From NCBI GenBank assembly GCA_965202665.1, contig OZ241841.1, forward strand, positions 288,001 to 352,000: a stretch of 64,000 nucleotides of DNA. Direction: 5' to 3'. The DNA is from Candidatus Spongiisociaceae bacterium. Its GTDB lineage: Bacteria > Actinomycetota > Acidimicrobiia > Spongiisociales > Spongiisociaceae. Position 1 is the stretch's first letter. Every line of letters starts with the position of its first letter. The notes below the pieces were generated by a model. That model had not been told where the DNA came from. It did not search any database and saw nothing but the letters and a program-made list of their open reading frames with translations. This document shows positions 11,068 to 60,796 of the stretch, one piece after another. A program made the translations under genes and the position numbers.

Positions 11068-12828
11068 CTACAACTGTAACAGCTCCCTGGATATACGCGA
11101 CACCTCCTCCCGGTCCAAACGGCGCTCCGCCTCCAGCAGGAGCCGCCGCAGTTCCTCCTTGCGGCGCTTAAGCCGTTTGTCCCGCAGGTAGGCCAGCAGA
11201 TCCTCCGCCGGTTCCAGCGGTTTGTTCAGCAACGCCAGCGGGCGGAGCATCTCCTCCAAGCCGGGGGACCCGAGCCCCGCCAGCGGAACGGGCTTCCCCG
11301 GGGGCAATTTCATTTTACGGACCGCCTCCAGCAACTGGGCGGCGACCTCCACCCCTTGGCCGGTGAACAAGTCCAGATCCACCTGCTCCAAGGGGGCGGT
11401 CCCGGCCAGCAGATGCCGGATCATTCCCTCTTGGGCCGGTTCTATTTCTTCTTCCCGCACCGGGCCGGATTCGGCCCTTGGGCCGGGGGCCGGCCGGGGC
11501 GCGGACGATGCGGAACGGGACTCAGCCGGACGGGCCGACCGGCGGGCCCGCTCTATCTCCCGGCGCACCGTTCCCAGCTTCATGCCGGTATGCCTGGCTA
11601 CATACCCTGCCAGCTGGTCGCGCTCCCCGCTATTGGGCCTGAGCGCAATCAGGGGGGCGGCCTCGCCCATCGCGCGGCCTTGGGAAACCTCGTCTTCCAA
11701 GTCATGCCGATTGAGGATTGCCCGCACATGAAAACGAACCATCGATTCGGATTGCTTCACGTATTTCCGTAGCAGTTGCGGACCGTCTTGCTCTTTCACC
11801 AGATCGGCCGGGTCTTGGCCGGCGGGCATCATCGCCACCCGCAGATCCAAGTCCAGATTGGAGGAAATGCGCAACTCTTCCCCCCGCACCGCGGCCCGCT
11901 CCCCGGCCGCGTCGGCGTCGAAAGCCAAAATGATGGTGGAGGCGAACCGGCCCAGCAGTTCCAAGTGCCGCTTGCCCAGGGCGGTGCCGCAGGTGGCCAC
12001 CGCCGCCGGGTAGTCGGCCAAATGAAAGGCGATTACATCGGTGTAGCCTTCCACCACCACCGCCCGCCCGGCGCGGCTGATTTCGGCCCGGGCCATGTCC
12101 AGGCCGTACAGCAACTCGCTTTTTTTGTAGAGGGGGGTTTCGGGGGTGTTCAAATATTTGGGCTGTTCGTCCCCCAACGCCCGGCCCCCGAACCCGACCA
12201 GGGCCCCGGACACGTTGCGGATGGGAAAAATAAGCCGCCCCCGGATGTGGTCGAAGAGCCGGCCCTCCCGGTTGCGTTTGGCCAATCCCGCCTCCAGTAT
12301 CACCCGCTCCGCAAACCCCTGCTGGTGCAGAAAGCGGGACAGGGCATCCCAACCGGGGGGGGAGAAACCCAACCCAAATTTCTCAACTATCTCCCGGCCG
12401 TAGCCCCGTCCCCGCACGTAGTCGCGGGCGGCCGCCGCCTCTTTCGATTGATTGAAAAAATCGCGATAAAACCGTCCCGCCTCTTCCACCGCGTCCAGCA
12501 GGCGGCGACGCTTCTCCCGGTTGCGGTCGGCGCCGGGCGTCGCGGCCAGGGTGATGCCCGCCCGGTCGGCCAGCTCCTGCAAAGCCTCCCGGAATTCCAG
12601 CCCCTCGGTCAGTTGCAGGAAGGTGAACACATCCCCGCCCTCATCGCAACCGAAGCAGTGGAACAGCCCCCGCCCGGGGTCGATGGACAGGGAAGGGGTT
12701 TTTTCGGAATGGAACGGGCAGATAGCCTGCCAAGAAGCTCCCGATTTCTTGACGGTGGTCACCGCCTCGAACATCGCAACCAGGTTGGTGGATTGCCGAA
12801 CCCGCTCCACATCATCGCGACCAGCCAT
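11068..12828 (-). CDS. dnaG: DNA primase
   Basis: CPFH..KTPS...CFGC zinc finger, KYLNTPET, VVEGYTDV, AFDADAAG; TACACT-N7-ATG leaderless start. Confidence 0.95.
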   Translation of the reverse strand: MAGRDDVERVRQSTNLVAMFEAVTTVKKSGASWQAICPFHSEKTPSLSIDPGRGLFHCFGCDEGGDVFTFLQLTEGLEFREALQELADRAGITLAATPGADRNREKRRRLLDAVEEAGRFYRDFFNQSKEAAAARDYVRGRGYGREIVEKFGLGFSPPGWDALSRFLHQQGFAERVILEAGLAKRNREGRLFDHIRGRLIFPIRNVSGALVGFGGRALGDEQPKYLNTPETPLYKKSELLYGLDMARAEISRAGRAVVVEGYTDVIAFHLADYPAAVATCGTALGKRHLELLGRFASTIILAFDADAAGERAAVRGEELRISSNLDLDLRVAMMPAGQDPADLVKEQDGPQLLRKYVKQSESMVRFHVRAILNRHDLEDEVSQGRAMGEAAPLIALRPNSGERDQLAGYVARHTGMKLGTVRREIERARRSARPAESRSASSAPRPAPGPRAESGPVREEEIEPAQEGMIRHLLAGTAPLEQVDLDLFTGQGVEVAAQLLEAVRKMKLPPGKPVPLAGLGSPGLEEMLRPLALLNKPLEPAEDLLAYLRDKRLKRRKEELRRLLLEAERRLDREEVSRISRELLQL

Positions 12829-13066
12829 ACCCCAGAGTGTAGGCGCCCCCAGCGACAAAACCCCCCGCCAGCTCCGGAGGGAGCATCCGCTTACCGCAAT
12901 TTTCCCCCGCGAGGCCGAAATCGGCGACCTACCTCCTACCCCAACCCTCTAGGCGAGAACCTCCATTCCCCCACCCGAACCCGGACAGGGACATCGGCTG
13001 GACGCACAACGCGACCATCATGCATAGAGTGGGTAGTACTAATATACAACCGAAGCTATTATACTA

Positions 13067-13498
13067 TTAAAAGATCCATCTGATTATCAAAATAGATAAA
13101 GCTAGTATAGAATAAAATATATAAATAGAAAATGACGTCAAACTACGTAAGAATACTTTCGGAATGGAACCGGTAGGTTTCACAACATATAAATCAGATG
13201 ACACCAAGTTGCCTTTTTCTAAATTACTGACAAAGTCGTTATAAGAATCACGAAACGCTCTTTCCAAGGCAAGATAATATGTGTCAAGTATCAGAAAAAG
13301 TAATATTGGCACAAATACAAACAGAATATAATCGGGCCTATCAATCCTGGCAACCAAAATCAGGCTTGCCGACACTAGAGTAACGCACCAAACCTTGCAA
13401 GCGCGACTATTATCTGCCATCCTCTCAATTACCCTTTGCGTAATTGTCAGATGGGTTTGCACCGAAGAAGATTCTGCATTCAGAGCAACATTGTCCAT
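13067..13498 (-). CDS. Small membrane protein (about 3 TM) coupled to the TIR gene, candidate defence effector
   Basis: HLTITQRVIERMADNS..CKVW, LDTYYLALERAFR; TAATG overlap; low GC. Confidence 0.7.
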   Translation of the reverse strand: MDNVALNAESSSVQTHLTITQRVIERMADNSRACKVWCVTLVSASLILVARIDRPDYILFVFVPILLFLILDTYYLALERAFRDSYNDFVSNLEKGNLVSSDLYVVKPTGSIPKVFLRSLTSFSIYIFYSILALSILIIRWIF

Positions 13499-13995
13499 TA
13501 TTTACTCCCTCTGATTCTGATAGCTTCCTCTACCCAATTTGCAAGATTATCGTGAATATAACTGTAAACATTATTGCTTATATTGGATGGAGGATCATAG
13601 GTTTTAATGATATCAGACAAAGATTGTATTCCTATCGCAGGATGGGCAAATGGATTAGTGCCTTTGTAAGATTGCTCTTTTTCCCGGTTCTTTAGGTTGT
13701 GTATATAGATTCCTAACAAACCTTTCTTGTCTATCCAAGCTTTTTTGATTTCATAATTAATCCACCTACGGCCTGCTGTTTTGGCACCAATTAAAACAAC
13801 CGCGCAAGACCTTCCTTCCATTTGATGGTCAATCCACCACTTGATGGCTGCATCCCCACCGCTCTTAATTTCCTCCCAGTCGTTACCCGAGACGGGTTGG
13901 TTGCCTTCCAGCACGCCCATCTCACGAACCTGAGCGGCGCGCCAAGCATCTTGATGATAATCGAAGCTGTAGAATACTCTACGTTTAGTTGCCAT
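13498..13995 (-). CDS. TIR-domain protein (ThsB/DUF1863-like)
   Basis: RVFYSFDY..D.WRA.QVR, CAVVLIG..T..RRWINYEI with the catalytic-type Glu; alternative TTG start at 14043. Confidence 0.85.
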   Translation of the reverse strand: MATKRRVFYSFDYHQDAWRAAQVREMGVLEGNQPVSGNDWEEIKSGGDAAIKWWIDHQMEGRSCAVVLIGAKTAGRRWINYEIKKAWIDKKGLLGIYIHNLKNREKEQSYKGTNPFAHPAIGIQSLSDIIKTYDPPSNISNNVYSYIHDNLANWVEEAIRIRGSK

Positions 13996-14049
13996 TTTGG
14001 ACTCCTGCCTGTTGTTCGCCACTGCATCGGGCAGTGCCTTCAAACCTCC

Positions 14050-14077
14050 AGTATACCCTCAGGCGTACTTGTGTCAA
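14050..14077 (-). promoter_or_regulatory. Near-consensus sigma-70 promoter for the TIR operon
   Basis: TTGACA-N16-TATACT on the minus strand. Confidence 0.7.
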
Positions 14078-14080
14078 GGC

Positions 14081-14160
14081 TAGGGGGATAGGGTTTGCTA
14101 AGTTTACGGCTAGTAGCACCCCTTCGCTTACGCTGGCTAGTGTTGGGGCGGCGGGGATAC
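14081..14160 (-). pseudogene. Degenerate copy of the yceI 3' end (original about 15799-15878)
   Basis: tagggggataggg...gtttacggctagtag...tcgctta.gctggcta aligns by eye. Confidence 0.8.
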
Positions 14161-14167
14161 CCGTCTC

Positions 14168-14303
14168 GGCGACGGTAGCGGCACCCGATGGCCTGCGTCA
14201 CAATCACCTCCACCTCCCACAACGGACGCAAAACGGAAACAACCTGTTCGGTCGCTTCCGTCAACTCCGATTTGCGGGGAAGGAGCAACATAGCCGTCCT
14301 CAG
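14168..14303 (-). pseudogene. Degenerate copy of a glyQS 3' segment (original about 16639-16775)
   Basis: Encodes VSVLRPLWEVEVIVTQAIGCRYRR versus ASVLRPLWEVEVDVTQAIGRRYRR. Confidence 0.9.
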
Positions 14304-14422
14304 TCGACTTGATCGTCCCGCCAAACGAAAAACCTCCACCGCACATATGCAACCAAAGTACGCAACGGGCACCTGCCCGGTCAACTGGGAGCTCTGAACC
14401 AATGGGGCATTGCTTCTTCTCG

Positions 14423-14851
14423 CTAGCCTCGTTGGTTCACATGCCTGATGATCTCCAAATCAGGAATGCCCTGAAAATCGCTATCATCTGTAGCCAAAGG
14501 GCAATCGATCAATAAAGCGGTAGCGGCGATCCAGGCATCAGCGGAATTAAGTGTATGCCCTACTTTTTTCTGCTGGCTACGCAAAGAAGCGGACTGTTCA
14601 CTCAATTGTATATCTGATTCTATTATATTATACTCTCTTATATGTTTTAGTAGATTGCTATATCTTGTTTCTCCCCAATCGCGAGAATGAGCCCAAAATA
14701 AAAGCTCTTCTACGGTTTGAAACGAGATAATCAATTCCCGTCCTTCAGTAGCATTATGATAATAGTCTACCTTTGCAGGTGGTCTTTTTTCAGGGTTAAA
14801 CAATATAGATACAACACTAGTATCTACTACCAAAGGACTAAAATCAGACAT
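14423..14851 (-). CDS. PIN-domain (VapC-like) ribonuclease
   Basis: VVDTSVVS, QTVEEL, ADAWIAATA, LATDDSDF. Confidence 0.9.
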   Translation of the reverse strand: MSDFSPLVVDTSVVSILFNPEKRPPAKVDYYHNATEGRELIISFQTVEELLFWAHSRDWGETRYSNLLKHIREYNIIESDIQLSEQSASLRSQQKKVGHTLNSADAWIAATALLIDCPLATDDSDFQGIPDLEIIRHVNQRG

Positions 14852-15746
14852 CAATTTCACGACTCTTGCTTAAATTTCTATCGTTTCTAATTTCTTTGCG
14901 GAACTCTTGATATTCTTTGTAGTCCATATCTACTTTATTGGTTTGATTAGGGTAGTATATTTTAGGATTAGGATTATTTTTATACTCTTCCACGGTAAGT
15001 GTCATAGAGCGAGTATCCTCAATTTCTTCTACTTGTAAATAATCTAATTTGTTGTCTTTTTTGAACTGACCATGTCCTCTTACTTCAACATGCTTAGTGG
15101 CTAGTTTAGTCATCTGATCTTTCAGTTTCTTATCAAAACGAAGCCGTATGTAGTCAGCCCCATGAAATTCGTGCAGTTGAGCGGTGTTTTTGGCCCAGTT
15201 TATCTCTTTGAGCCAACCCCACAAAAGCATATGTTCGGATTCCAGGGGGGACTTAGCGGGGCGGGGCAAGGGTCGGACCTCCGTTTGGCGGGGCTGGGCC
15301 ATGTCGCCCAGCCAAACCTTGGTCCCGTCGGGCAGGCAGGAACTCATCTCGCCCAACTTGTTCAACACCTGCTCCGGCAAGGCGGGCTGCCCGTTGGCCT
15401 TCTGTCTTCGCAGGGCCCTCATAGCCTGAATTCCGAGATTTTGGCCATCGGGGCCTGCCTCTGCCGCCTTTGGGGCCAACTCGGTGATCATAGAACCTTT
15501 ATGAATGGCGACCAGCCGCAGGGCGCTTTGCTCGCGAGCCCACTTAGGCGGGGGACCGGGTTTGCCCATCTCCCCTCCGCCCAAATGGACAACTAAGAGC
15601 CGCATTGCATCCTGCAGGCCGCCCAACGCGCTCAAAAAGGATTCCAGGGGCAAGCCGGCATCTTCAATGCCCGCCCCCTCAAAGGTAATCGTCAGATTGT
15701 CGGTTGAGATGCGCCTCCTCGCCTCGCCGTCCATCAGTTTAGGCAT
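14844..15746 (-). CDS. Hypothetical 300-aa protein overlapping the PIN gene, possible antitoxin or partner
   Basis: Long ORF coupled to PIN; no family recognised. Confidence 0.7.
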   Translation of the reverse strand: MPKLMDGEARRRISTDNLTITFEGAGIEDAGLPLESFLSALGGLQDAMRLLVVHLGGGEMGKPGPPPKWAREQSALRLVAIHKGSMITELAPKAAEAGPDGQNLGIQAMRALRRQKANGQPALPEQVLNKLGEMSSCLPDGTKVWLGDMAQPRQTEVRPLPRPAKSPLESEHMLLWGWLKEINWAKNTAQLHEFHGADYIRLRFDKKLKDQMTKLATKHVEVRGHGQFKKDNKLDYLQVEEIEDTRSMTLTVEEYKNNPNPKIYYPNQTNKVDMDYKEYQEFRKEIRNDRNLSKSREIDV

Positions 15747-15797
15747 GACGCGCCGCTACCGGAAAACAAGCATGCGGATGCAACAGCCGCCCCGGGC

Positions 15798-16490
15798 TTA
15801 GGGGGATAGGGCTACTAGGTTTACGGCTAGTAGGACCTCGTCGCTTATGCTGGCTACCATTGGGACTGCGGGGATGCTTAGGTTGAAATCGGCGTGGAGG
15901 ACGGAGGCGGTTGCTTCTATTTCCAGGCGGGAGCGGCTGGCCAAGGTTATTTGGCCCGCAAAAGTTACCGGCTGGGTCGTTCCGCTCAGCGTCAAATCGC
16001 CGGTTACCGTTACTGGGAGACTTTCTCCGACCGCTACCTCCCCGGGCAGCCCCTCCAACGCGGTGGGGACGAACCGGGCGAACTCGTTTTCCTCGTCGGA
16101 GGTGTTGAGAATCCGGCTGCGTATGGCCCGGTCCCGCAGGGAATCGTCGGTGGACAGGGTGCGCACGTTGATAACTATCTCCCCCACCTCGGAGGCGGAC
16201 GGGTCGTCGAAATCCACCCTGATCTGGCCGGCCACTTCGCTGGTGGTCCCCGTCACTCGGAAGTCGTTCCCCCGCAGCACCTCGTCTATCTCGAACCGCA
16301 CCTCGGACTGGGTTTTGTCGATTTCGAAGACGGCTTGGGAAGCCCCCTCCTCCACCGCCACCGAAGCGGCGGTCACTTCCACACTGGGTTCGCCGCTGCC
16401 CCCCGAAAACCAGATGTAGGCCAGCCAGCCGACGACGGCCAACACCGCCAGCCCCACCAACCAGACGAGACGAATCAACCAGCGGGTCAT
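15798..16490 (-). CDS. YceI-family protein with N-terminal TM anchor
   Basis: FEIDKTQSEVRF, TDDSLRDRAI, VTGDLTLSGTTQPVTF. Confidence 0.88.
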   Translation of the reverse strand: MTRWLIRLVWLVGLAVLAVVGWLAYIWFSGGSGEPSVEVTAASVAVEEGASQAVFEIDKTQSEVRFEIDEVLRGNDFRVTGTTSEVAGQIRVDFDDPSASEVGEIVINVRTLSTDDSLRDRAIRSRILNTSDEENEFARFVPTALEGLPGEVAVGESLPVTVTGDLTLSGTTQPVTFAGQITLASRSRLEIEATASVLHADFNLSIPAVPMVASISDEVLLAVNLVALSP

Positions 16491-18690: not shown

Positions 18691-19662
18691 TTATTCTATT
18701 GGTAAAAGACCGGATGTGGGATGACTCAGTCGACTGAGGGCTTTCTTTTCCAATTGCCGAATCCGTTCTCTTGTCAAACCATATTTGGAGCCTATTTGCT
18801 CAAGCGTATGACGTTTATTTCCGTTGAGAGCAAAACGGAGACTTAGAATCACTTGTTCCCGAGCAGGAAGGTTTTGAAATCTGGTCAGAAACGGTTGATC
18901 TAACATACTTTCTTCGATATAGCGAAGTTGATCCATCGAGCTAACCTCCTCTAAATAATCAACTAATCGATAAGTTTCTTGGAATATAGTTGGATTATCG
19001 GGATCGTCTATTTTGGGTTTGGAATCAAAGATTGGAGAAAGTTCATTAAGTATTTCATCCCATTTCACCATATCCTCCAAAGCATCTCGCATACGAAGAA
19101 TCTTGATCAAGGGCAATTCCAAATATTGACTCATCTGTTCCGGGGCTGGCGGTTCGCCAGTCACTTCATATCTATTGTTATATATTTTTTGATACTTATA
19201 CACCTCTTTCCAATTATGTACGGGGATGCGTATTGTGTGAGAATGATTTTGAATTTCCTGGGTTATAGCCTGCCGTATCCACCAAACAGCATAGGTTGAG
19301 AACTTGGTCCCCCTACGCCAATCCCATTTTTCCACCGCTCTGATCAAACCAAGGTTGCCCGCCTGTATTAAGTCAAGTAGTTCTATGCCGGAATCATCAA
19401 ATTTTCTTTGCGCCTGACTGACCACTAGCCGCAGATTAGCGGTCAAAAACCTGTTTTTAGCATCTCGCGCCCCCCGTCTTCTGCGGGCAACTTCCCGACA
19501 CGAGGGCTCATCAAGTATGATGACTCCTTTTTCCAACAGACGCTCCGTCCGTTGCGCCTTCTCCATGATTTTGGCTAACGCCACCTCCTCCTCGGCTGTC
19601 AGCAAATCGTGCTGTCGGACACTGGCCAGATAGGTTTCAAGCGGATCCAGATCAGCAGACAT
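18691..19662 (-). CDS. Second sigma-70 (RpoD-like) factor, low GC
   Basis: LLTAEEEV.LA, ANLRLVV, DLIQAGNLGLIRAVEK, FSTYAVWWIRQAI, TLEQIG...LTRERIRQ. Confidence 0.9.
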   Translation of the reverse strand: MSADLDPLETYLASVRQHDLLTAEEEVALAKIMEKAQRTERLLEKGVIILDEPSCREVARRRRGARDAKNRFLTANLRLVVSQAQRKFDDSGIELLDLIQAGNLGLIRAVEKWDWRRGTKFSTYAVWWIRQAITQEIQNHSHTIRIPVHNWKEVYKYQKIYNNRYEVTGEPPAPEQMSQYLELPLIKILRMRDALEDMVKWDEILNELSPIFDSKPKIDDPDNPTIFQETYRLVDYLEEVSSMDQLRYIEESMLDQPFLTRFQNLPAREQVILSLRFALNGNKRHTLEQIGSKYGLTRERIRQLEKKALSRLSHPTSGLLPIE

Positions 19663-41103: not shown

Positions 41104-43861
41104 TCAAGTGGGAATTGCGGTCTGGGTGGGACCTTGGGCGCGGCGGGCCTCTTGGGATATGCTTTCCCAGGCGGTGACCAAGCTGTTGTAGGCCACGGCG
41201 TCCTCGGTGGCACCCTCGGAGTCCGCCACCTGGTAGAGCAGATAGGCAAGATGGCGGGCTTGGTCGCTCATCCCGCCCCCCACCTTGGCTAACAACTCCC
41301 CAGCCTTGCCTTCGGATTTTTCCATTCGGGCGATGAGGTGCTGGGTAATCTCCCAAACGGTCAATCTTCGGTCGGTCCTAGGATCCCACTCTGGGTCCAA
41401 CTCGTCCCGGCGCAACAACCGAACCTTGCCGCCCTTGGACTCCACAACCCCCGCATCCTCCACCCCCTCCACCGCCACCCCCATCGCCTTCGCCAAAACC
41501 TCAGCATCCCCGAACGATCCCAATTCGAATCCGTATTGGCGATACCAGGTAAGAGCAAACCGACTGTCGGAATCCAATTCAGACTCTTCCGCCGACAAAA
41601 TCTCCTCCAATTTTTCGTTGATGAGACCCAACGCCGTACGAACCGACATCGTGGACCCATCCGCCTCCACCACCCGGGCATAGCGGGAGAAAATACGCAT
41701 TCCCGGCCCGATAGCCGACTGAGCCATATCCACCGGCGGAATAGCCTGCTCCTGAAGTAACTCTATGGCCTCCGGCATCTCATCCCGCAAGGCGGCTATA
41801 AACCCACCCCTCGTTTCTAACTGAGCATTATCAGAACGAGGACGGCAAACCAACACCACCGAAGAGGCCAACGCTGCCGTACCTTGTGAAATCATTCGGC
41901 CAGTTGTTTCAGTATGAATGGGCCAAGTGGCGGTTATCTGTAAACCAGCATCTACCAATCCTTGAAGGAAAGTTTCCCAACCAGTAGAAGTGATTTTTCC
42001 GTTCTTCTTTTCTTGTTGCTTAAATGCGTAAAAAATGGTAGCAGGAAACTTCCGGTTTTGAGCGAGGGCTATTCCCTTCATTACGTTTTTCATACCCTCC
42101 TCAAAATTTTTTTGAGCAATTGTCATTGAACCTACCCTCCATGGACTAGCTACCAATTCATCGAGTTTAGGGGTTAATAAAGTAGAGCATTCATCTGGCC
42201 ACAAATCAAACAAATTATGACGTAACCATACATAGAAAAAATCTGAAATATCTGCATATTGAATGTTGTCATAGTAAGGAGGATCGGTGCAAATTATTGG
42301 TGATACTATCTCCTCTAATCTAGTTTTTGATTCGCGTTGTTTAATATCAGATAGGACAGTATCTTGGATTAAAGGCCAATCTTTAGATGAAAAAGATAGT
42401 AGGACTCCATCAACCATTCCTTTCCAGGAACCTGAAGAATTGCTTAACGGATTGGCTTCCGCATAATCCCATATCATAGGAATAGCTTGCCGACCAAATA
42501 AACCAACAGGACATTCTGAGCTTGGCCTCCATCGAACTAATGAATTATTTGCTTCCGCTAACTTATCAAAAGCAAAAGATAAGTATGTAACAACTGCATC
42601 CGCATAAGCTACAGAACCAGCCCCTCCATCTCGTAAACGTATTCCATCATTGGCTAAGCCTGCTTGCTCAGAATCTGATTTTATAGTATTCCATACTTCC
42701 AACAAAAGAGTAGACAATGTACCAAGTGATATTAATTGTCGAGTAGTAAAGAGATCACTCCATTTTGTCATTCCATATAAAGAAACGCTGTCGGTAGCCT
42801 TACCCAATAAATTCCCTTTAGGAATGAAGTTAGGTTCTGGGAGATTTGGCAACACAGTAGGATTAAAATACATCCTACCAGACTCACCTTCCACAGCAAC
42901 CGCAATCATTGTTTCACTCATCAATCCTTGTTGACTTTGATACTGTATATATTTGGAACTAACTGACGCCCCAGTAGCAATACAAATACCACCTCCTCTA
43001 GCGATTGTCCTCTTTATAGGAGTACCACCCTCCCTAATATTATATCTCACAGTGTGCGTTGAACGATCAACAATCGGTTCTACCCAAATCAAAGGCTTGC
43101 CCTCTTTCTTACGTAATATCCAATTACTTACTAGTGGAATATGACCACTCCAAGATGGATCAGGAGATTTAACGGAACGAGCCCAAATCCATGCTATTAC
43201 CGTTGAATCCTCCACCCTTGGATATATATAACCGATATGTTCCTGTGCTCCCCTATGAATTAAGTCTCCATAGAACTTGATATCCTCCGCTAAACCTTGA
43301 GCTCTATTCCATGTTTTGAGGGTAGTAACATCCTTAGATGCAGGATTAACCGGTGGATAATTTTTAAACCGGGGCGGAATTTCTACCATAGCCTTGGAAA
43401 TTAACACTGCTACTGGATTTAAATCGCCTCCAAACGATGGTAAACCCAAACGCTGGGCCTCCAGTGGAATAATTCCTCTCCCGCAAAAGGGGTCTAAAAC
43501 CCTTACCCCCCCCCCCGTTTATAGAAGGCTCTATCTCCCTCCGGGCCTCGTCCAATACTTGAGGATTGTTAGAATTCTCTCGCGTCAACAACCTTTCCAA
43601 AATACTAAACAGCCGCTTGCGCTCCAGTGTTCTATCCTCCTCTGTAGGAAACCTATCAGGATCAGCAAGGGGATCATCCACTAAGGATGCCCACAAAACC
43701 GCCCGTGCGGCAGGCAATGGACGACGCGCCCACCACCTATGAAGATTAGAAGGATGACCCATCTTGACATTTATATCCCGCACAGACGCTTCATTTATGG
43801 CCTGGAGGGGGAGGGCCACCTCTATTAGTTTGGGGCCGCGGGGGAGGACTACGTCGGCCAT
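41104..43861 (-). pseudogene. DUF1156 adenine-specific DNA methyltransferase, frameshifted at a G11 tract
   Basis: KLIEVALPL, HRWWARRPL; LDPFCG.G.IPLEA in the other frame; TDPPYYDN; C11 at 43506-43516 on the + strand. Confidence 0.85.
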
Positions 43862-43867
43862 TAGGGG

Positions 43868-43944
43868 TGGTGGAGCTGACGGGATTTGAACCCGTGGCCT
43901 CTTGCATGCCATGCAAGCGCTCTGCCGACCTGAGCTACAGCCCC
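43868..43944 (-). tRNA. tRNA-Ala(GGC)
   Basis: GGGGCTGTAGCTCAG...CTTGCATGGCATGCAAG...GGTTCAAATCC...CTCCACCA. Confidence 0.96.
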
Positions 43945-52480: not shown

Positions 52481-52746
52481 CGCGCTTCGTCTCCTTTCGC
52501 CCAAACGAAGAAACCGGACGATACCCTACCCGAATGCCGGGGACGGGGGGCGGATTTCCCCCGCCTAGCCGACGCGGCCCCGCGGGACGGCCCCCCGCCG
52601 CCCGCCCAAACCGGGCCGGCACCCGCCTGACCAGGCAAAACAAGGGGGTGTTTTTTGTCACGGAAGTAGGCTATATTGAAAATAGCGGGACAAACGAAGC
52701 GGACGGAGGCAACCAAGCCGCCCCTGGGGCGGAAAGGAGTCACAAG

Positions 52747-53007
52747 ATGGCCAAAAACAAGGCCGCGCGCCTGGCCAGAAAGGCCGCGCGCAAAAGGAAA
52801 AGGGAGTTCGCCCGGGCGAATAAGTTGTTCCTCCGTTCACTCAACTCGGGGGTTCCCATTTCTATTTTGATGCCCGACACCCCCGTACACCCCAATCCCC
52901 CCTGTGCGTTGCTGAACCCCCCGTACAAGACCAAACCTCCCAGCCGGTCAAAATCCAAGGAGGAGACCCGATATTGCCGCACACGACGCTGGGTTTGCAA
53001 ACCGTAA
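52747..53007 (+). CDS. Small basic hypothetical protein (86 aa)
   Basis: GAAAGGAG RBS; MAKNKAARLARKAARKRKR. Confidence 0.55.
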   Translation: MAKNKAARLARKAARKRKREFARANKLFLRSLNSGVPISILMPDTPVHPNPPCALLNPPYKTKPPSRSKSKEETRYCRTRRWVCKP

Positions 53008-53045
53008 TAAGCAGGCAAGTAAATCCCGTTTCAGAAAGGAAGGCG

Positions 53046-53306
53046 ATGTTCAACCGTAAGCCCAAAATGGGCTCACGCTCACAGCGGAGTTCCAGACGCG
53101 AACGTCTGCGCTCCAAGCGGGAATATCGGCGACGCCAGCACTTTGAGCCGAAAGGCGCGCAAGTGGTGCCAATAGTGCCGGTCACCGTTAAAACGGACGC
53201 TCCGTCCGCTATTCCATTGCCTCCCCTGCAAGAGGATACAGATCAGGCAACAGCAAATACTACCTCCCTAGAGACCAAGTTGTTATACCCAAAAAGAGAA
53301 TGGTAA
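53046..53306 (+). CDS. Small basic hypothetical protein (86 aa)
   Basis: GAAAGGA RBS; Arg-rich N-terminus. Confidence 0.55.
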   Translation: MFNRKPKMGSRSQRSSRRERLRSKREYRRRQHFEPKGAQVVPIVPVTVKTDAPSAIPLPPLQEDTDQATANTTSLETKLLYPKREW

Positions 53307-54470: not shown

Positions 54471-54552
54471 CCCGCCCCAACGCCCGGCGCGTCCGCCCGC
54501 CGTCAGCCCCCGCCAAATTGTTAGTAATCCGCCAAACCTGTAAAATGGCCCC

Positions 54553-55290
54553 GTGAGGCAAATACTTTCCGATCTGGTGGCGGAACAACAACATCTGGAC
54601 CAGTTCCTGCAGCAAATCAACATTCGCAACTGGTCGCTGGAAACTCCGGCGGAGGGCTGGGACATCCGGGACACGGTTTCCCATTTGGCCCACATTGAAG
54701 AGTACGCCGGCGACGCCCTGAACGGGAGCGGCTCCCGCCTGGACGAGTTGGACGACTACCGGGATTTGAACGAGTTGACCGAAGCGGGGGTGCGCCGGGG
54801 CCGGAACATGCGCCCGCAGGATGTGATCGAATGGTGGCGGCTGGAGCGGGCCAAAGTGGTGGAGGCCCTGAGCCGAACCAAAGCCCGGGAACGGGTGCCC
54901 TGGTTTTTCGGGGACATGTCGGCCCGCAGTTTCGCCACTATGCGCCTGGCCGAAACCTGGGCCCACGGCCTGGACGTGTACGCGGCGGTGGGCGAGGAAG
55001 CGGAAGATTCGGAACGGTTGCAACATGTGCTGTTGCTGGCGCAGATGAGCCTGCCGTGGGCTTTCCGGATGGCGGGCTTCGACTACGACCAAGCGGTTCG
55101 GTTGGAGGGAATAGGGCCCATGTACGCCAAATACGTGGCTGGCCCGGAAGACACCGACCAGCTGATCCGGGGGCCGGTGGGGGAAATCTGCCGTATCGCC
55201 CTGCAACGGCTGGACCCTGATGACGCCGAAAACCTGATAGTCAAGGGGGACACGGCCGCCGCCGCCGTGCAAGTAATGCGCACCTATTAA
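54553..55290 (+). CDS. Mycothiol-dependent maleylpyruvate isomerase (MDMPI) family protein
   Basis: TPAEGWDIRD.VSHLA, RLAETWAHGLD. Confidence 0.85.
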   Translation: MRQILSDLVAEQQHLDQFLQQINIRNWSLETPAEGWDIRDTVSHLAHIEEYAGDALNGSGSRLDELDDYRDLNELTEAGVRRGRNMRPQDVIEWWRLERAKVVEALSRTKARERVPWFFGDMSARSFATMRLAETWAHGLDVYAAVGEEAEDSERLQHVLLLAQMSLPWAFRMAGFDYDQAVRLEGIGPMYAKYVAGPEDTDQLIRGPVGEICRIALQRLDPDDAENLIVKGDTAAAAVQVMRTY

Positions 55291-55331
55291 ACGGGCCGCC
55301 CCGCACCCGTTTAGACGGGCCGCCCCGCACC
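55289..55331. repeat. 17-bp direct repeat (period 24) overlapping a weak hairpin
   Basis: acgggccgccccgcacc at 55291 and 55315; aaacggg/cccgttt arms. Confidence 0.7.
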
Positions 55332-55355
55332 GGTCGGCACGCCCGGAGGACGACG

Positions 55356-56132
55356 ATGGGTGATTTGTTTATGGTCGGGATGGTCCATCTGGGCCCGCTC
55401 CCCGGCTCCCCCCGCTATACCGGCGACTTCCCGCAGGTGCTGGAACAGGCGGTCGCCGATGCGGCCATCCTGCAGGAAACCGGGTGGAATGCGGCGTTGG
55501 TGGAAAACTTCGGAGACGCCCCTTTCTACGCCGATGACGTCCCGGACATTACGGTGGCGGCGATGACCCGGGCGGTGGCGGAGGTGCGGCAGGCGGTAAC
55601 CATCCCGGTGGGGGTGAACATGTTGCGCAACGATGCGCAGGCGGCCCTGGCGGTGACGGCGGCCTGCGGAGGAAGTTTCATCCGGGTGAATGTGCTGTCG
55701 GGGACGATGTTCACCGACCAGGGAATAATCGAAGGCAAAGCGGCCGAGTTGTCCCGCCTGCGCCGCACCCTGGGAGCGGAAGTGGAATTCTGGGCGGACG
55801 TGTTCGTAAAACACGCCGTCCCGCCCCCCGGCACAGAAATAGGAGCCGCCGCCAAAGACCTGTGGGAGCGAGCCGGGGCCGACGCCCTGATAGTGTCCGG
55901 CCCCGCCACCGGCCATCCGCTAAACGACCAGGACCTACGCCAGGTGCGGCAGGCCCTCCCCCAAGCCCGCCTAATAGCCGGTTCCGGAGTAACCCCCGCC
56001 AACATAACCGCCCTAACCCCCCACATAGACGGAGCCATAGTAGGAACCGCCCTAAAACAAGAAAACCAACCCCAAAACCCAATAGACCCCACCCAAGCCC
56101 AAACTATAATAAAAGCCGCCCACCCCCGCTAA
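55356..56132 (+). CDS. BtpA/SgcQ family protein
   Basis: GMVHL.PLPGSP, VENFGDAPF, GVNMLRND, FIRVNV, ADVFVKH, IVSG.ATG. Confidence 0.92.
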   Translation: MGDLFMVGMVHLGPLPGSPRYTGDFPQVLEQAVADAAILQETGWNAALVENFGDAPFYADDVPDITVAAMTRAVAEVRQAVTIPVGVNMLRNDAQAALAVTAACGGSFIRVNVLSGTMFTDQGIIEGKAAELSRLRRTLGAEVEFWADVFVKHAVPPPGTEIGAAAKDLWERAGADALIVSGPATGHPLNDQDLRQVRQALPQARLIAGSGVTPANITALTPHIDGAIVGTALKQENQPQNPIDPTQAQTIIKAAHPR

Positions 56133-56135
56133 CCT

Positions 56136-58265
56136 CTACAACGGGCCATCTCCCCTCGGTTGCCAAGCCCATCTAGAAACATGATCAGCCAGCTTACGAA
56201 CACCAGAACCGTCCAACTCCACCACCCACAACCCCCCGTCACTCGCAGTAAAGGAGATCCGTCCATCATCCGGCGACTCTTCCCACCGTGTAACATCGTC
56301 TGCTAATAGACGATTGCCCGAACCATCCAAACCCATCACCCACAACTCCCTAGTCGCGTTGTTAGAAGAATCTCGCACAGCCACCTCATATATTATTTGG
56401 TCTCCAGTCCCCTTTCCGTAACTATAAATAGTGACATCGCTAGTCAACTGACGATTGCCCGAACCGTTCAACCCCGCCACCCATAACTCCGAGCCTACCA
56501 CAGTCCGACTAGAATTCCTCACTTTTATCTCATAGATAATGCTCTCCCTACTCAATATCCAATTCCAACCTCCCACAATATCATCGGCCAGTTGACGAGC
56601 GTTCGAACCATCCGCCTCCGCCACCCACAACCCCGTACCCAACCATTTACCAAACTCCCACACTTTCGACTCAAAAGCTATCCGATCTCCACTGGACGAC
56701 CACGCCCACCTATAAGCAAAATCTTTAGTTAACTGATGCTCCATCAAACCATCCAATTTCATCACCCACAACTCATCTGCCATTTTATTACCAGAATTAT
56801 CTCGCATCCTCACCATATAAACAATCCGCTCCCCATCAGGTGACCACTCCCAATCACCAACGTCATCGGTTAAACGATTAATACCCGAACCATCCACCGC
56901 TACCACCCATAACTCCTCATAGGTATGCCGACCATAAGTCTTATAGGCGATCCGTTCCCCATCTGGTGACCACTCCAAATCCTGATTCCAACGAAACTCG
57001 TTACTCAACCGACGAGCACCCGAACCATCCACCGTCGCCACCCACAACTCATACTCCTCAGATCCCAAATTCCCTTGCTTATTTACTAGATACGCAATCC
57101 TTTCCCCATCCGGCGACCACCACCAACGATAAAAATCATCTGTCAACTGACGAGGGCTTGAACCATCTGCACCCGCTACCCACAAATTCTGGCCAGCCTC
57201 ATTACCGCGAAAATCGCGTAACGCAATATTATAGGCGATTCTATTCCCATCTGGCGACCACTCCCAGCTCCAACCAACATCGTAGCGGCGGAGCGGTCTT
57301 TCAATATAACGGAGGGCATCCGGCGACCACTCCCCAGTCCAACCAACATCAGTCCAACCAACATCGTTCGTTAACCGACGAGCACCCGAGCCATCCGCAC
57401 CCGCTACCCACAACTCATAAGCCACCTCTTCGCCAAGTGAATCGTACACCGAAACCCGATACCCAATTCGCTCCCCACCCGGCGACCACCCATAAACACC
57501 AAAATCATAGGGTAGATCATCGGTCAACCGACGAGTGCCCGAACCATCAGACTCCTCCACCCACAATTCCCCACCCACTCGATACGCAATCCGTTCCCCA
57601 TCGGGCGACCAATAATCATCATCAGAGACCCAACCGGGTAACCGACGCGCACTCGAACCATCGGCCTCAACTACCCACTCCTCAGAGGATACTTGATCGC
57701 CAGCTGAATCGTATTTTGGGACTGTGTAGGCGATTTTGCGGGCGGGCGGGGTCAGGTCGTTTAGGGCTTGGGTGCCTTGGCGCATGAATGTTGCTAGGTC
57801 TGCCCGGGTGGAACCGGCGGGGAACGCCCGACTGGCTACCGTTGCGATCTGGTTGGGGGTTATGGTTCGGTCGGGGCGGAAGGCGCCGTCTGGGTAGCCT
57901 TGGAACCAGCCCTGTTCCACCGCGTAGGCTATATCCCCGCTTTGGGGGTGCGACTCTGCCACATCGTCGAAATCGGCGGAACCGTCGGGGTCGCCCGGGT
58001 TGCCTCCCCTTAGGAAAGTGGCTAGATCGGCCCGGGTGGAACCTGTGGGGAACGCCCGGTTGATTACCGTCGCTATCTGATTTTGGGGAACCTCCCGATT
58101 GGGGCTGAAAGTCCCCCCGGGGTAGCCCTGAAACCAGCCTTGTTCACAGGCGTAGACGATGTCAGCCTGTTGCGGACCGGACTGCGGCACATCGGAAAAC
58201 CGGCAACCAGTCCCATCCTGGGCACCAAGCGGGGAGACGGCCGCCGTCAAACACGCCGCCGCCAA
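56136..58265 (-). CDS. SLH-domain protein with TolB/PD40-like beta-propeller repeats, paralog 1
   Basis: GWFQGYP.G.F.P..TR motifs; many WSPDGERIAY / LWV...DGS..RRLT repeats. Confidence 0.85.
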   Translation of the reverse strand: MAAACLTAAVSPLGAQDGTGCRFSDVPQSGPQQADIVYACEQGWFQGYPGGTFSPNREVPQNQIATVINRAFPTGSTRADLATFLRGGNPGDPDGSADFDDVAESHPQSGDIAYAVEQGWFQGYPDGAFRPDRTITPNQIATVASRAFPAGSTRADLATFMRQGTQALNDLTPPARKIAYTVPKYDSAGDQVSSEEWVVEADGSSARRLPGWVSDDDYWSPDGERIAYRVGGELWVEESDGSGTRRLTDDLPYDFGVYGWSPGGERIGYRVSVYDSLGEEVAYELWVAGADGSGARRLTNDVGWTDVGWTGEWSPDALRYIERPLRRYDVGWSWEWSPDGNRIAYNIALRDFRGNEAGQNLWVAGADGSSPRQLTDDFYRWWWSPDGERIAYLVNKQGNLGSEEYELWVATVDGSGARRLSNEFRWNQDLEWSPDGERIAYKTYGRHTYEELWVVAVDGSGINRLTDDVGDWEWSPDGERIVYMVRMRDNSGNKMADELWVMKLDGLMEHQLTKDFAYRWAWSSSGDRIAFESKVWEFGKWLGTGLWVAEADGSNARQLADDIVGGWNWILSRESIIYEIKVRNSSRTVVGSELWVAGLNGSGNRQLTSDVTIYSYGKGTGDQIIYEVAVRDSSNNATRELWVMGLDGSGNRLLADDVTRWEESPDDGRISFTASDGGLWVVELDGSGVRKLADHVSRWAWQPRGDGPL
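57248..57350. repeat. 34-bp direct repeat (30/34 identical) around a 35-bp unique insert
   Basis: 57248-57281 versus 57317-57350, period 69. Confidence 0.8.
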
Positions 58266-58319
58266 CCACAGCCACCACCATCGAAACCGGCCCTGATTAA
58301 CGATGATATGCGTCTTCCA

Positions 58320-58456
58320 CTACGAACTGGACGGTTCGGAGAAGCCCACGCCTAGCAGGTACCGTTGGGCGTCGGGATCGTTGATTATCTCGTTGGTGGA
58401 CATTCGGCGACTATGTTACAGGAAACCACCACCAGATGCCGTTCCGCCACCGCCGA
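58320..58456 (-). pseudogene. Degenerate copy of the livF-like 3' end
   Basis: ccacgcctagcagg...caccagatgccgttccgccaccgccga matches about 62476-62587. Confidence 0.88.
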
Positions 58457-58571
58457 CCTGCGGGAGCGCGCCGGAGCCGACGCCCTGACAGTGTCCAGCC
58501 CCGCAACCGGCCATCCGCTAAACAACCAATATCTACGCCAGGCGCGACAAGTTCTCCCCCAAGTCTAATAG
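58455..58571 (+). pseudogene. Degenerate copy of a btpA 3' segment
   Basis: Matches about 55857-55977 (DLRERAGADALTVSSPATGHPLN). Confidence 0.9.
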
Positions 58572-58636
58572 AGGCCACCCGACCCCGCTAACCACCACCT
58601 GAACCCCACCCCGCCTATTTCAGCAATGAAACGGGC

Positions 58637-60796
58637 CTAACGCTCCATTGGTTGCCATAACCAAATATCAACATCTTCAACCAATTTACGAACACCCGAA
58701 CCATCAGCCCCTGCCACCCACAACTCTGAGCCTGCTTTACTACCAGAAGAATCTACTACATAGGCAATCCACTCCCCATCAGATGACCACCTCCAATCAT
58801 TAATGGCAACCGCATCAGCTATCTTATGGGGGGAGGTATCCCCTCCCGTTACCCATAACTCCACGCCCACCTTATTTCCAGAAGAATCTCGTTTATTTAC
58901 CCCATAAACTATTTTCTCGCTATTAGGCAACCATCCCCAAATATTATTAGCAATATCATCTATTAACCGATTAGGGTTCAATCCACCCGACTCCACTATC
59001 CACAACTCAGAGCCCACCACACTCCGTCGAGGATCCCTTTTTTTGACCTCATAGGCAATCCTCTCCCCACTCGGCGACCATCCCCAACTTTGAATATCAT
59101 TTGCTATCTGCCTAGTATTCGAACCATCAGCATCCGCCAACCACAACCCCGTACCCAACCATTTACCAAACTCATATACTCTCGACTCATAAGCGATACG
59201 ATCCCCACCGGACGACTTCCCCCAGTTATAAGCAAAATCATCAGTTAATCGACGAGTGCTAGACCCATCCACACCGGCAACCCACAGCTCTTTAGCCTCC
59301 ACGCTTCCAGGAGAATAAGGACACTCGTCTAAAGTTACCTCTAAAACAATACTCTGCCCATCGGACCACCACAAATCGCTAAACGGCGATCCCCCACACC
59401 TATTATCACTTGGGATTAACCGACGAGCACCCGAACCATCTAGTCCCACCACCCACAACTCCCAACCAAAGTCCATTGAAATACTTTCATAAGCAATCCA
59501 CCTACCCCCCGGTGACCACCAAAAATCTTCCCTGATGTTGTTTATCAGCTGACGAGCACCCGAACCATCCGCCTCCTCTACCCATAACTCCTCATCCACC
59601 CGATACGCAATCCGCTCCCCATCTGGTGACCACCCCATGAGAGACCCCCACCACCATCTAGAAGCAAGGTCCGTCATCTGACGAGAATTTGAACTATCCG
59701 CACCTGCTACCCACAACTTCTCCCCAATCTCATTACCGCGAAAATCGCGTAATACAACATTATAGGCGATGCGATTTCCATCCGGTGACCACCGCCAAGC
59801 AGAACCAACATCGTCCGTCAGTCTACGAGCACCCGAACCATCCGCTTCCTCCACCCATAACTCATAAGCCACCTCGTCGCCAAGTTTATCGTATACCGGA
59901 ACCCTAAACGCAATCCGCTCCCCATCCGGCGACCACTCCCAACCAGGGCGCCACCCCCAACCACGAACATCGTCGGTTAAACGCTTGGCATCTGAACCAT
60001 CCGCCTCCTCCACCCATAACTCTTCATCCACCCGATACGCAATCCGCTCCCCATCCGGTGACCACTGCCACCACCGCCACCAATAATAATCATGAGAGAC
60101 ATAACCGGTTAACCGACGGGTGCCCGAACCATCGGCTTCAGCTACCCATACCTCAGAGGCTACCTGATCGCCGGATGAATCGTATTGTGGGACTGTGTAG
60201 GCTATTTTGCGGGGGGAGGATGGGGTCAGGTCGTTTAGGGCTTGGGAGCCCCTTCGCATGAATGTCGCTAAGTCGGCACGGGTGGAACCGGCGGGGAACG
60301 CCCGACTGGCCACCACCGCTATCTGGGTTGGGGTTATGGTTCGGTCGGGTCGGAAGGTGCCGTCCGGGTAGCCCTGGAACCAGCCCTGCTCCACCGCGTA
60401 GGCTATATCCCCGTTTTGGGGGTGCGACTCTGCTACATCGTCGAAATCGGCGGAACCGTCGGGGTCGCCCGGGTTGCCTCCCCTCAGGAACGTGGCTAGA
60501 TCGGCCCTGGTGGAACCGGTGGGGAACGCCCGGCTGACAACCACCGCTATCTGATTTTGGGGAACCTCCCGATCGGGGCTGAAAGTGCCACCCGGGTAAC
60601 CCTGAAACCACCCTTGTTGGCAGGCGTAGACGATGTCAGCCTGTTGCGGACCGGACTGCGGCACATCGGAAAACCGACACCCCGTCCCGTCCTGGGCGCC
60701 GAGCGGGGAAACGGCCGCCGTCAAACACGCCGCCGCCAACCACAGCAACCACCATAGGAGCCGACTCTGCTTGCCGATGATGCGCATCATTCCCAT
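58637..60796 (-). CDS. SLH-domain protein with TolB/PD40-like beta-propeller repeats, paralog 2
   Basis: Signal peptide, SLH region nearly identical to paralog 1, WSPDG repeats. Confidence 0.88.
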   Translation of the reverse strand: MGMMRIIGKQSRLLWWLLWLAAACLTAAVSPLGAQDGTGCRFSDVPQSGPQQADIVYACQQGWFQGYPGGTFSPDREVPQNQIAVVVSRAFPTGSTRADLATFLRGGNPGDPDGSADFDDVAESHPQNGDIAYAVEQGWFQGYPDGTFRPDRTITPTQIAVVASRAFPAGSTRADLATFMRRGSQALNDLTPSSPRKIAYTVPQYDSSGDQVASEVWVAEADGSGTRRLTGYVSHDYYWWRWWQWSPDGERIAYRVDEELWVEEADGSDAKRLTDDVRGWGWRPGWEWSPDGERIAFRVPVYDKLGDEVAYELWVEEADGSGARRLTDDVGSAWRWSPDGNRIAYNVVLRDFRGNEIGEKLWVAGADSSNSRQMTDLASRWWWGSLMGWSPDGERIAYRVDEELWVEEADGSGARQLINNIREDFWWSPGGRWIAYESISMDFGWELWVVGLDGSGARRLIPSDNRCGGSPFSDLWWSDGQSIVLEVTLDECPYSPGSVEAKELWVAGVDGSSTRRLTDDFAYNWGKSSGGDRIAYESRVYEFGKWLGTGLWLADADGSNTRQIANDIQSWGWSPSGERIAYEVKKRDPRRSVVGSELWIVESGGLNPNRLIDDIANNIWGWLPNSEKIVYGVNKRDSSGNKVGVELWVTGGDTSPHKIADAVAINDWRWSSDGEWIAYVVDSSGSKAGSELWVAGADGSGVRKLVEDVDIWLWQPMER

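Follow-up and report, generated by a model that had tools for sequence, protein, structure and literature searches.

The silent sites of two tandem genes for SLH-anchored beta-propeller proteins, and of the adjoining end of the btpA gene, are the subject of this report. They lie in bases 288,001 to 352,000 of the single 2.77-Mb contig (OZ241841.1, 64% G+C) of Candidatus Spongiisociaceae bacterium, a stretch of 64,000 bases to which we refer as the window, and they form tracts in which one strand is rich in G and T and the other in A and C. This asymmetry was quantified as keto skew, (G+T-A-C)/length, and as k3, the keto skew of third codon positions read on the sense strand. Described strand asymmetries of replication and transcription include chirochores and the excess of C to T on the non-transcribed strand. 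They share with the tracts a G+T excess on one strand and an origin-like change of sign, but they are small and extend over replichores or transcription units, whereas k3 here was 0.5-1.0 over 0.4-6 kb and flipped within open reading frames (ORFs). Fungal repeat-induced point mutation (RIP), in which C to T changes are confined to repeats, inactivate them, and hit coding positions, is similar in its confinement to repeats. Here, however, proteins were preserved, one strand per tract was affected, and G<->C exchange took place as well.

In GC-biased gene conversion, reportedly the subject of work by Lassalle et al. in 2015, a bias in heteroduplex repair shifts silent-site composition without selection on the protein, and in this respect the process resembles what may have happened here. 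It favors G and C on both strands and raises GC3, the G+C content of third codon positions, whereas the propeller-coding sequences favor G+T on one strand, have a GC3 of 0.48, and adjoin tracts of opposite sign; a symmetric rise of G and C at silent sites was not found in them. Gene conversion is also described for the concerted evolution of tufA and tufB (PMC5485169), and repeats are likewise homogenized within the present genome, as seen in the SLH-coding parts and in identical tuf copies. The portion of that literature drawn on here describes homogenization; in this genome there is in addition strand-specific rewriting to G/T, with mirror tracts and sharp internal borders. The closest biochemical counterpart is NucS, or EndoMS. 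According to the passages cited, EndoMS cleaves G/T, G/G, and T/T mispairs (PMC6159521), and in Mycobacterium smegmatis oligonucleotide-made G-T or G-G mispairs are rejected via a patch of ~5-6 bp, while C-C, A-A, G-A, C-A, and A-C mispairs become mutations (PMC11551744). The recognized mispairs define the same keto/amino axis as the tracts, and the annealed strand is corrected in short patches. As far as their cited portions go, these papers concern replication errors and oligonucleotide editing and mention no footprint of this kind in the composition of repeated genes. For M. tuberculosis, a NucS-only species, a 2026 preprint reports T>C enrichment in paralogous regions and raises the possibility that recombination-associated repair asymmetries reshape the composition of such regions (PMC13061034). 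The passage in question is without mention of strand-specific tracts, mirror tracts, or sharp borders, unlike the locus described here. In the literature on Acidimicrobiia codon usage, EF-Tu, NucS, and biased gene conversion, a search that left subscription journals uncovered found no description of such tracts.

We consider it possible, at a probability of roughly 0.4, that the tracts were written by strand-biased mismatch correction of recombination heteroduplex by NucS, and not by local hypermutation.

Tract structure and inheritance at the btpA and SLH/propeller locus

The contig is rated 94% complete as a genome. Its cumulative GC and keto skews reach a minimum at 1.346 Mb and a maximum at 2.715 Mb; the window (288-352 kb) therefore lies wholly within one replichore, and its + strand is of the lagging type and C-rich, with most window genes on the - strand. 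Third positions across the genome have G3 of 0.40, C3 of 0.39, A3 of 0.10, and T3 of 0.10 (GC3 0.81), and the replication-linked component of k3 is small (+0.04 for leading genes versus -0.08 for lagging genes). Despite its G+C content, the genome as a whole favors AAA among Lys codons (0.62, versus AAG), and 46% of its Glu is encoded by GAA. We call a tract purged where the sense strand of the SLH/propeller genes is G/T-rich and mirror where it is A/C-rich. The features of the locus are as follows.

55,356-56,132, + strand: btpA (BtpA family; Pfam BtpA 1.4e-79), with its 3' third inside purged tract 1
56,136-58,265, - strand: SLH/PD40 beta-propeller gene 1, 709 aa (Pfam SLH, PD40, DPPIV_N), convergent with btpA and 3 bp apart from it
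58,637-60,796, - strand: SLH/PD40 beta-propeller gene 2, 719 aa, the tandem paralog of gene 1
55,807-57,697, unstranded: purged tract 1, + strand A/C-rich, spanning the btpA 3' end and the gene 1 propeller, with sharp edges at both ends
57,697-58,100, unstranded: mirror tract 1, coding for SLH repeats, + strand G/T-rich, +0.40 decaying to ~0
58,422-60,168, unstranded: purged tract 2 in the second tandem unit, spanning a btpA 3' fragment copy and the gene 2 propeller, k3 +0.41 to +0.56
60,168-60,570, unstranded: mirror tract 2, the SLH-coding part of gene 2

Both SLH genes encode an N-terminal SLH anchor followed by a PD40-type beta-propeller. Their SLH parts are 92% identical in protein, and their propeller parts are 59% identical in protein and 67% in DNA. 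The btpA 3' fragment copy was located between the two genes, at ~58,431-58,563, by tblastn of the btpA segment, and a self-match of 84% links 55,846-55,965 to 58,444-58,563. The tandem repeat units extend over 55,846-58,340 and 58,444-60,820, and the left edge of tract 1 lies ~40 bp from the left end of its unit.

In purged tract 1, the - strand is poor in C, and to some extent in A, at its silent sites (C3 0.06-0.13, T3 0.31-0.41). The tract is bounded by a down-step at 55,807 (D -0.50) and an up-step at 57,684 (D +0.63), with D being the difference in keto skew between the two flanks (right minus left). Third positions of the propeller parts have G3 of 0.41, C3 of 0.07, A3 of 0.13, and T3 of 0.39, and the avoidance of C is evident from codons such as TTT (15/15 Phe), TAT (34/38 Tyr), and GAT (85/96 Asp). 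Synonymous first positions follow the trend, with TTR used for 54 of 69 Leu (78%) and AGR for 21 of 84 Arg (25%). The SLH parts are of the mirror type and use A/C-ending codons; with both genes pooled, CTA accounts for 6/10 Leu, ATA for 8/13 Ile, and TAC for 10/10 Tyr. The sequence-only reading that preceded this analysis had claimed that the skew flips inside both SLH ORFs, and this was confirmed at third positions: k3 was -0.42 and -0.38 at codons 100-200 of the two genes, which encode the SLH repeats, and then +0.40 to +0.66 in the propeller parts. The change of wobble class takes place within ~10-18 codons after a KIAY motif, where the first propeller blade begins. The idea that SLH modules have such a composition in general was rejected, with 19 SLH-coding stretches in the genome averaging a k3 of -0.06. 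The amino acid composition of the purged propellers is shifted slightly toward G/V/W/F/L/C (0.356-0.378 versus 0.338-0.347), with Pro reduced, which is suggestive only.

The skew does not end with the SLH genes. In btpA, k3 falls from ~0 at codon 105 to between -0.93 and -1.00 in the last 45 codons, where G3 is 0, T3 is 0-0.03, and A3 is 0.50-0.57. The + strand is A/C-rich without a break from 55,807 to 57,697, spanning the two convergent genes. Because the purged tract runs across the stop codons into convergent btpA, it is a feature of the DNA. Two further elements of the sequence-only reading held at this locus: the polarity is the same on a gene of the + strand (btpA) and one of the - strand (SLH), and neither codon usage nor the direction of a single gene suffices to explain it, as the asymmetry belongs to the DNA duplex.

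To place these borders in the genome, steps were ranked against all genome positions, and each switch point named in the sequence-only reading was scored by the best D within +-150 bp, using flanks of 300 bp as well as 500 and 1000 bp. The point at 57,705 (D = 0.63) ranked in the top 0.02% of positions and that at 60,180 (D = 0.53) in the top 0.08% with 300-bp flanks. They also stood out, together with 53,300, with 500-bp flanks, and with 1000-bp flanks these two SLH points were the sole standouts among all those named.

The same arrangement was found in a sister species of the same genus. There, btpA, with 76% identity, is followed in synteny by a first SLH/propeller gene, a fragment of btpA, and another SLH/propeller gene. 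The mosaic is also the same, with a C3 of 0.51-0.56 in the SLH part and a C3 of 0.06-0.12 and T3 of 0.30-0.39 in the propeller. Both window genes and their two sister-species counterparts switch at one and the same codon, following the KIAY motif that all four have in common. Compositionally normal paralogs exist as well, namely, a third copy in the sister species and two copies 20 kb from the window. Contigs of three independent studies carry the region, and the sister species shares the pattern; it is not an artifact of assembly. The two strong switches, we conclude, mark conserved borders inside the tandem SLH/propeller genes at which strand-specific tracts meet.

Propeller proteins are 51-59% identical between any two of the four purged genes, with 59% and 58% within species versus 51-56% between them, which is weak evidence of concerted evolution. 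For the SLH parts, identity between paralogs is 92% in this genome and 84% in the sister species, compared with 61-63% between species. Their tree forms clades by species (support 86/92 and 87/89), and the tandem layout with the btpA fragment is present in both species, which dates the duplication to before their split; this pattern is the signature of concerted evolution. A second strain, represented by two runs of one study, had 40 differences in 54,900-56,654 (1,755 bases, 2.3%), the last of them at 56,418, and 0 differences in 3,656 listed bases of 56,628-60,650 at matching depth, where ~84 would be expected at 2.3%. Divergence between the strains thus falls from 2.3% to 0 at ~56,420-56,630 and is zero until ~60,650. 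The drop resembles the end point of a recent between-strain recombination or sweep. The drop suggests that recombination is active at the locus. A contig joint of 57,830 to 60,592, seen in two runs, was not counted as evidence, as one side measures only 22 bases and lies inside a repeat.

We also considered whether the locus could be a mosaic of foreign modules, with propeller and SLH parts acquired horizontally from donors of differing composition and not yet drifted to that of the host. The low GC3 of the propellers (0.48 versus 0.81 for the genome), the sharp junction, and the fact that a codon-usage gene caller missed both SLH genes would fit such an origin. We nevertheless regard it as highly improbable. 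The strongest purge is carried by the tail of btpA, a native gene that is 76% identical to the sister copy and has a full-length BtpA domain. The state persists in two species whose silent sites are presumably saturated, judging from the identities of btpA (76%) and the propellers (51-59% protein). Moreover, R-ending codons keep the host preference for G while Y-ending codons flip to T, which is a strand asymmetry and not the mark of a low-GC donor.

Purged tracts across the genome

The genome was divided into ~100-codon segments (n=7,131, which are not independent of each other), and strong skew was defined by |k3| > 0.35 or |k3| > 0.5. A non-self match is present for 16.7% of the genome. Segments with |k3| > 0.5 were predominantly repeated (214 repeated and 27 unique; n=241), whereas those with |k3| <= 0.5 comprised 1,015 repeated and 5,875 unique segments (n=6,890). 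Mean |k3| increased with the identity of the best paralog, from 0.15-0.16 at 60-80% to 0.33 at 80-90%, 0.40 at 90-97%, and 0.44 at >= 97%, versus 0.13 in unique DNA. In repeats of at least 80% identity, 38-54% of segments exceeded |k3| of 0.35, compared with 3.4% of unique segments; with the largest family excluded, the value for repeat segments was 38%. Families were built from links at >= 80% identity (n=43). The median |k3| of 17 families was above the 95th percentile of unique DNA, and that of 38 was above the unique median.

Of the 22 window segments whose |k3| exceeds 0.35, 19 belong to HNH, hmaB, and SLH repeat genes, 17 of them with DNA repeat cover. Besides the SLH genes, this concerns two features.

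39,469-40,966, - strand: HNH/DUF222 repeat element (Pfam), with 8 further genome loci (two at 88%, the others at 67-72%); sense strand G/T-rich, k3 +0.34 to +0.50
41,104-43,912, - strand: gene for an hmaB-type DNA adenine methylase (DUF1156), split into two ORFs (PADLOC HmaB 3e-240 and 7e-35; Pfam DUF1156)

The HNH element is the HNH example of the sequence-only reading. The hmaB gene lies in a low-GC island beside tRNA-Ala, has related copies at >= 5 other loci (65-72%), and reaches a k3 of +0.44 in one segment. The other three skewed segments are unique: 7,439-7,738, yceI, and the btpA 3' end. The 3' part of yceI (15,801-16,190, - strand, unique) shows a mild mirror wobble (G3 0.25, C3 0.47, A3 0.22, T3 0.06; k3 -0.37).

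Genome-wide, the G/T-rich class of segments has G3 of 0.58, C3 of 0.12, A3 of 0.04, and T3 of 0.26, and the mirror class has G3 of 0.12, C3 of 0.62, A3 of 0.21, and T3 of 0.06. The skewed repeat families include tuf, HNH/DUF222 elements, hmaB-type methylase genes, transposases (mirror class), and giant SLH-anchored arrays. The leading strand is the G/T-rich one in 283 of 375 strongly skewed repeated segments. The tracts at the SLH/propeller pair are part of a genome-wide footprint that is concentrated in repeated genes.

The tuf gene is present in two identical copies (genome 1,041,185-1,042,375 on the - strand and 2,035,689-2,036,879 on the + strand) with a k3 of +0.92. Its third positions have G3 of 0.73, C3 of 0.04, A3 of 0.00, and T3 of 0.22, and all 29 Leu residues are encoded by TTG. 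Codon usage typical of high expression was rejected as an explanation, with fusA, rpsL, rpsG, rpsJ, and rplC-B beside tuf having k3 values of -0.27 to -0.02. Among the 22 tuf loci of relatives, 17 show the purge (k3 +0.42 to +0.97), while those of Streptomyces and of other phyla do not. The five normal loci are those of the genomes that we label G005, G029, G028, and G022 (one full hit each) and G025 (two hits, k3 +0.13). A relation between tuf copy number and purge was not counted as evidence, given fragmented assemblies and partial hits of G022 at contig ends.

The giant SLH-anchored proteins (~1,900-2,100 aa or more) belong to one repeat family of ~110 kb, with arrays at genome positions 1,013,800-1,036,400, 479-514 kb, 767-782 kb, 2,217-2,231 kb, and 2,454-2,468 kb. 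In the giant genes, the sense strand starts out G/T-rich at its 5' end and becomes A/C-rich toward the 3' end, so that the skew of the arrays traces a sawtooth, jumping abruptly from A/C to G/T where one unit gives way to the next. At the intergenic switch points of the arrays, a G-run follows a promoter-like TTGACA element.

The sequence-only reading had assigned all switches one recurrent polarity, from A/C-rich to G/T-rich on the + strand. As stated, this did not hold, with opposite steps of |D| > 0.25 (300-bp flanks) being equally common in the window (27 up versus 25 down) and in the genome (728 up versus 718 down). The down-steps at 55,807 (D -0.50) and 58,002-58,184 (-0.35 to -0.41) match most up-steps in sharpness. 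The sharpest steps (200-bp flanks, |D| >= 0.5) behaved differently: up-steps outnumbered down-steps by 31 to 3 in repeats (>= 80% identity), versus 34 to 31 in unique DNA. The 31 up-steps collapse to 12 sequence clusters, and one cluster of 10 is the transition from a proline-rich to a glycine-rich linker, which is a protein-level effect; the excess of one polarity is therefore suggestive. An origin-like polarity is thus retained for 57,697, 60,168, and the sharpest repeat steps, but not for steps overall. Nor do the switches resemble those of a replication origin or terminus, which coincide with a global skew extremum and keep one sign for hundreds of kilobases; the local tracts measure 0.4-1.9 kb. 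In a motif search, 12 representative sharp points shared nothing beyond C-runs and G-runs, apart from a promoter-like element that two intergenic points have in common.

These results bear on the mechanism favored by the sequence-only reading, namely, hypermutation targeted to accessory patches by nicking with strand displacement, re-initiation, or a deaminase or polymerase, which would diversify defense, sigma, and surface genes. A strand-polarized process at the level of the duplex is indeed indicated at the btpA/SLH locus, and the sharpest repeat steps share the origin-like polarity. However, the effect resides at silent sites, recurs at matching codons, border included, in all four genes of the two species, and coincides with strain identity (0/3,656 versus 40/1,755 differences in the adjacent DNA). 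Accessory patches are not enriched; |k3| > 0.35 was found in 3.8% of unique low-GC segments versus 3.2% of other unique segments, and the Thoeris-like, PIN, and sigma genes have k3 of 0.03-0.26. Four of the nine named points are at background. Simple deamination of single strands does not agree with the large G<->C transversion component of the genome-wide purge, and deamination of resected 3' tails would be expected to give the opposite polarity. As for a dedicated diversifying enzyme, a search of the one-contig, 94% complete genome for reverse transcriptase (RVT_1) found none; a search for DddA-like deaminases gave no match and is uninformative, as its positive control was silent everywhere. 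Because the changes are silent and inherited and the strains identical over the listed bases of these genes, an origin of the tracts by hypermutation is not supported. A hypermutation system that diversifies defense genes can be set aside, and we attach very little likelihood to any targeted form of it.

Possible mismatch correction by NucS and transcript-based alternatives

A nucS gene is present in the genome (NucS_C 5.5e-33, genome 872,772-873,134). MutS_V and MutL_C were not found in this one-contig genome, rated 94% complete, in a search whose controls matched in 11 of 14 genomes. The specificity of NucS is known from Corynebacterium and Mycobacterium, as described in the sections cited (PMC6159521, PMC11551744), and we assume by analogy that the enzyme of this organism corrects only G/T, G/G, and T/T, and does so on the incoming strand. 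Under this assumption, a strand from one copy, or from the allele of another strain, would pair with a diverged partner to form heteroduplex. Wherever G/T, G/G, or T/T mispairs arise, NucS would correct a short patch of the incoming strand, while A/C, A/A, and C/C mispairs would escape. A strand that is habitually the incoming one would then keep its A and C alleles and lose its G and T alleles, and its complement would drift to G/T. Where the incoming strand changes, for instance to either side of an initiation site or where homology ends, the skew would flip abruptly. Biased correction of this kind would act along the amino/keto axis, including G<->C exchange, as is seen genome-wide. By extension, we tentatively suggest that in NucS-only bacteria a strand-asymmetric biased gene conversion may rewrite the silent sites of repeated or often-recombining genes to G/T-only or A/C-only tracts, whose sharp borders would be recombination starts or ends of homology.

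Several observations weigh against this explanation. The window propellers, at 67% identity in DNA and 59% in protein, are too diverged for frequent mutual conversion; since four diverged copies keep the purge, something that needs no near-identical partner must be at work there. At genome 637,571-640,443 (+ strand), a pair of unique genes has a k3 of +0.65 to +0.98; the two genes are adjacent and genus-specific, encode secreted Thr/Pro-rich proteins without Pfam domains, and have a sister-species ortholog (42% identical) with a k3 of +0.65. Among extreme segments, 27 of 241 are unique. Conversely, 20 of 43 repeat families are without strong skew, and the tandem periplasmic-binding-protein genes at 60,821-62,000 and 63,958-65,137 (- strand), which are 95.7% identical over 1.18 kb, are unskewed. 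This binding-protein pair is either a counterexample to the link between repeats and purge or a very recent duplication. Singletons among three giant paralogs show, in the A/C-rich part, a net flux that opposes the skew (C>T 86 versus T>C 37; A>G 111 versus G>A 68) and, in the G/T-rich part, no directional flux; this polarization does not distinguish an equilibrium drive from inheritance. Actively converting tuf and the SLH parts have opposite polarities relative to replication, which points to no single rule for the strand that is purged. The local signature is transition-like only (T3 0.39; A3 0.5 in the btpA tail), which deamination predicts likewise. Any role of NucS is inferred.

Because the propellers are diverged, unique genes are purged, polarity follows no evident rule, and the local signature is transition-like, two explanations based on RNA or transcription are live rivals. 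The first is selection for a low content of C and A in certain transcripts, such as those of tuf and of abundant proteins that are secreted or at the cell surface; tract borders would then be functional borders of RNAs. A possible reason is that sense RNA would deny Rho its C-rich loading sites, while antisense RNA would be an ideal Rho substrate. Such selection would account for a purge that is kept in four diverged copies and in the unique gene pair, in two species, and that exploits all synonymous options, TTG for Leu and AGG for Arg among them. The absence of strain differences in the tract fits a constraint on silent sites, and, as btpA and the SLH gene are 3 bp apart, their transcripts must overlap, which could carry the constraint into btpA. 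We consider transcript selection unlikely all the same. Mirror tracts share their ORF and mRNA with purged ones, the effect extends to transposase and HNH repeats, and the ribosomal-protein genes and fusA beside tuf are normal. The tail of btpA is purged more completely than the SLH gene itself, and the enrichment in repeats of at least 80% identity, rising with identity, would be unexpected.

The second rival is mutation associated with transcription, in which the single-stranded non-template strand of a transcription bubble or R-loop loses C by deamination, with read-through from the SLH gene reaching the 3' end of btpA. The local signature, which is mostly a sense change of C to T (T3 0.39; G3 of 0 and A3 of 0.5 in the btpA tail), is what this process would leave. 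Affected genes include tuf and those for likely abundant surface proteins, promoter-like elements stand directly after several intergenic switch points in the giant arrays, and the 283 of 375 skewed repeat segments with a G/T-rich leading strand agree with the location of most highly expressed genes. We nonetheless find it quite unlikely that transcription-associated mutation is the cause. The k3 of fusA and of the ribosomal protein operon, which flank tuf, is ~0, and the border at 57,697 is sharp within ~10 codons in the middle of an ORF whose upstream SLH part, on the same transcript, is mirror. The large C to G component seen genome-wide and the association with repeats would not be explained. 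Strand-biased correction of heteroduplex by NucS would provide both of these, and this is the reading we retain for the tracts at the odds given at the outset.

Other switch points in the window and implications

The sequence-only reading had listed nine A/C to G/T switches. In addition to the two extreme ones in the SLH genes, three were modest and four were at the level of background. Among the modest points, 53,300 (D = 0.29) ranked in the top 1.1% with 300-bp flanks, the top 1.3% at 500 bp, and the top 4% at 1000 bp; 15,795 and 43,800 (D = 0.26 each, top 1.8%) faded to the top 5-8% at 500 bp. The background points, with 300-bp flanks, were 27,356 (D = 0.19, top 5.5%), 945 (D = 0.16, top 8%), 19,690 (D = 0.15, top 9%), and 14,065 (D = 0.09, top 22%). 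The features at several of these points are listed below.

12,900-15,746, - strand: low-GC accessory island with a PDC-M50A/ThsB-like TIR pair, a PIN-domain gene, and unknown ORFs; k3 0.03-0.26
18,691-19,662, - strand: complete sigma-70 family gene of low GC (GC3 0.43), adjoining recO; no significant step at 19,690
43,868-43,944, - strand: tRNA-Ala(GGC) at the island edge; 43,800 is the island/tRNA/rsfS boundary, with a modest step
52,500-53,300, unstranded: lower-GC patch of unique DNA without recognizable genes; down-step at 52,499 and up-step at 53,300 (top 1%)

Points 14,065 and 15,795 are the interior and the edge of the 12,900-15,746 island. The pair in this island is a PADLOC candidate system, PDC-M50 (A; B ThsB/TIR-like), at 13,067-14,043 (- strand), where the island has 36-45% GC and the PIN-domain gene adjoins. 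The GC content of the sigma-70 gene is far below that of its neighbors uppS and recO, and 19,690 is the sigma/recO border. Gene strand accounts for some of the skew seen in unique DNA (r = 0.43; within-class standard deviation of 0.09 per 400 bp), and divergent gene pairs have a mean step of only +0.08. For these reasons, the seven named points other than those of the SLH genes are ordinary gene or island borders and composition noise.

If strand-biased correction by NucS is indeed the cause of the tracts, it would be a new evolutionary force on codon usage, legible from a single genome. Odd codon usage in tuf, surface proteins, and mobile elements would then not be evidence of horizontal transfer, expression, or selection, and the tracts would constitute a map of recombination in uncultured bacteria that is obtained from sequence alone. 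The known specificity of NucS would gain a visible evolutionary consequence. If selection on RNA is responsible instead, the tracts would reveal an unrecognized constraint on some of the most abundant transcripts of the cell.

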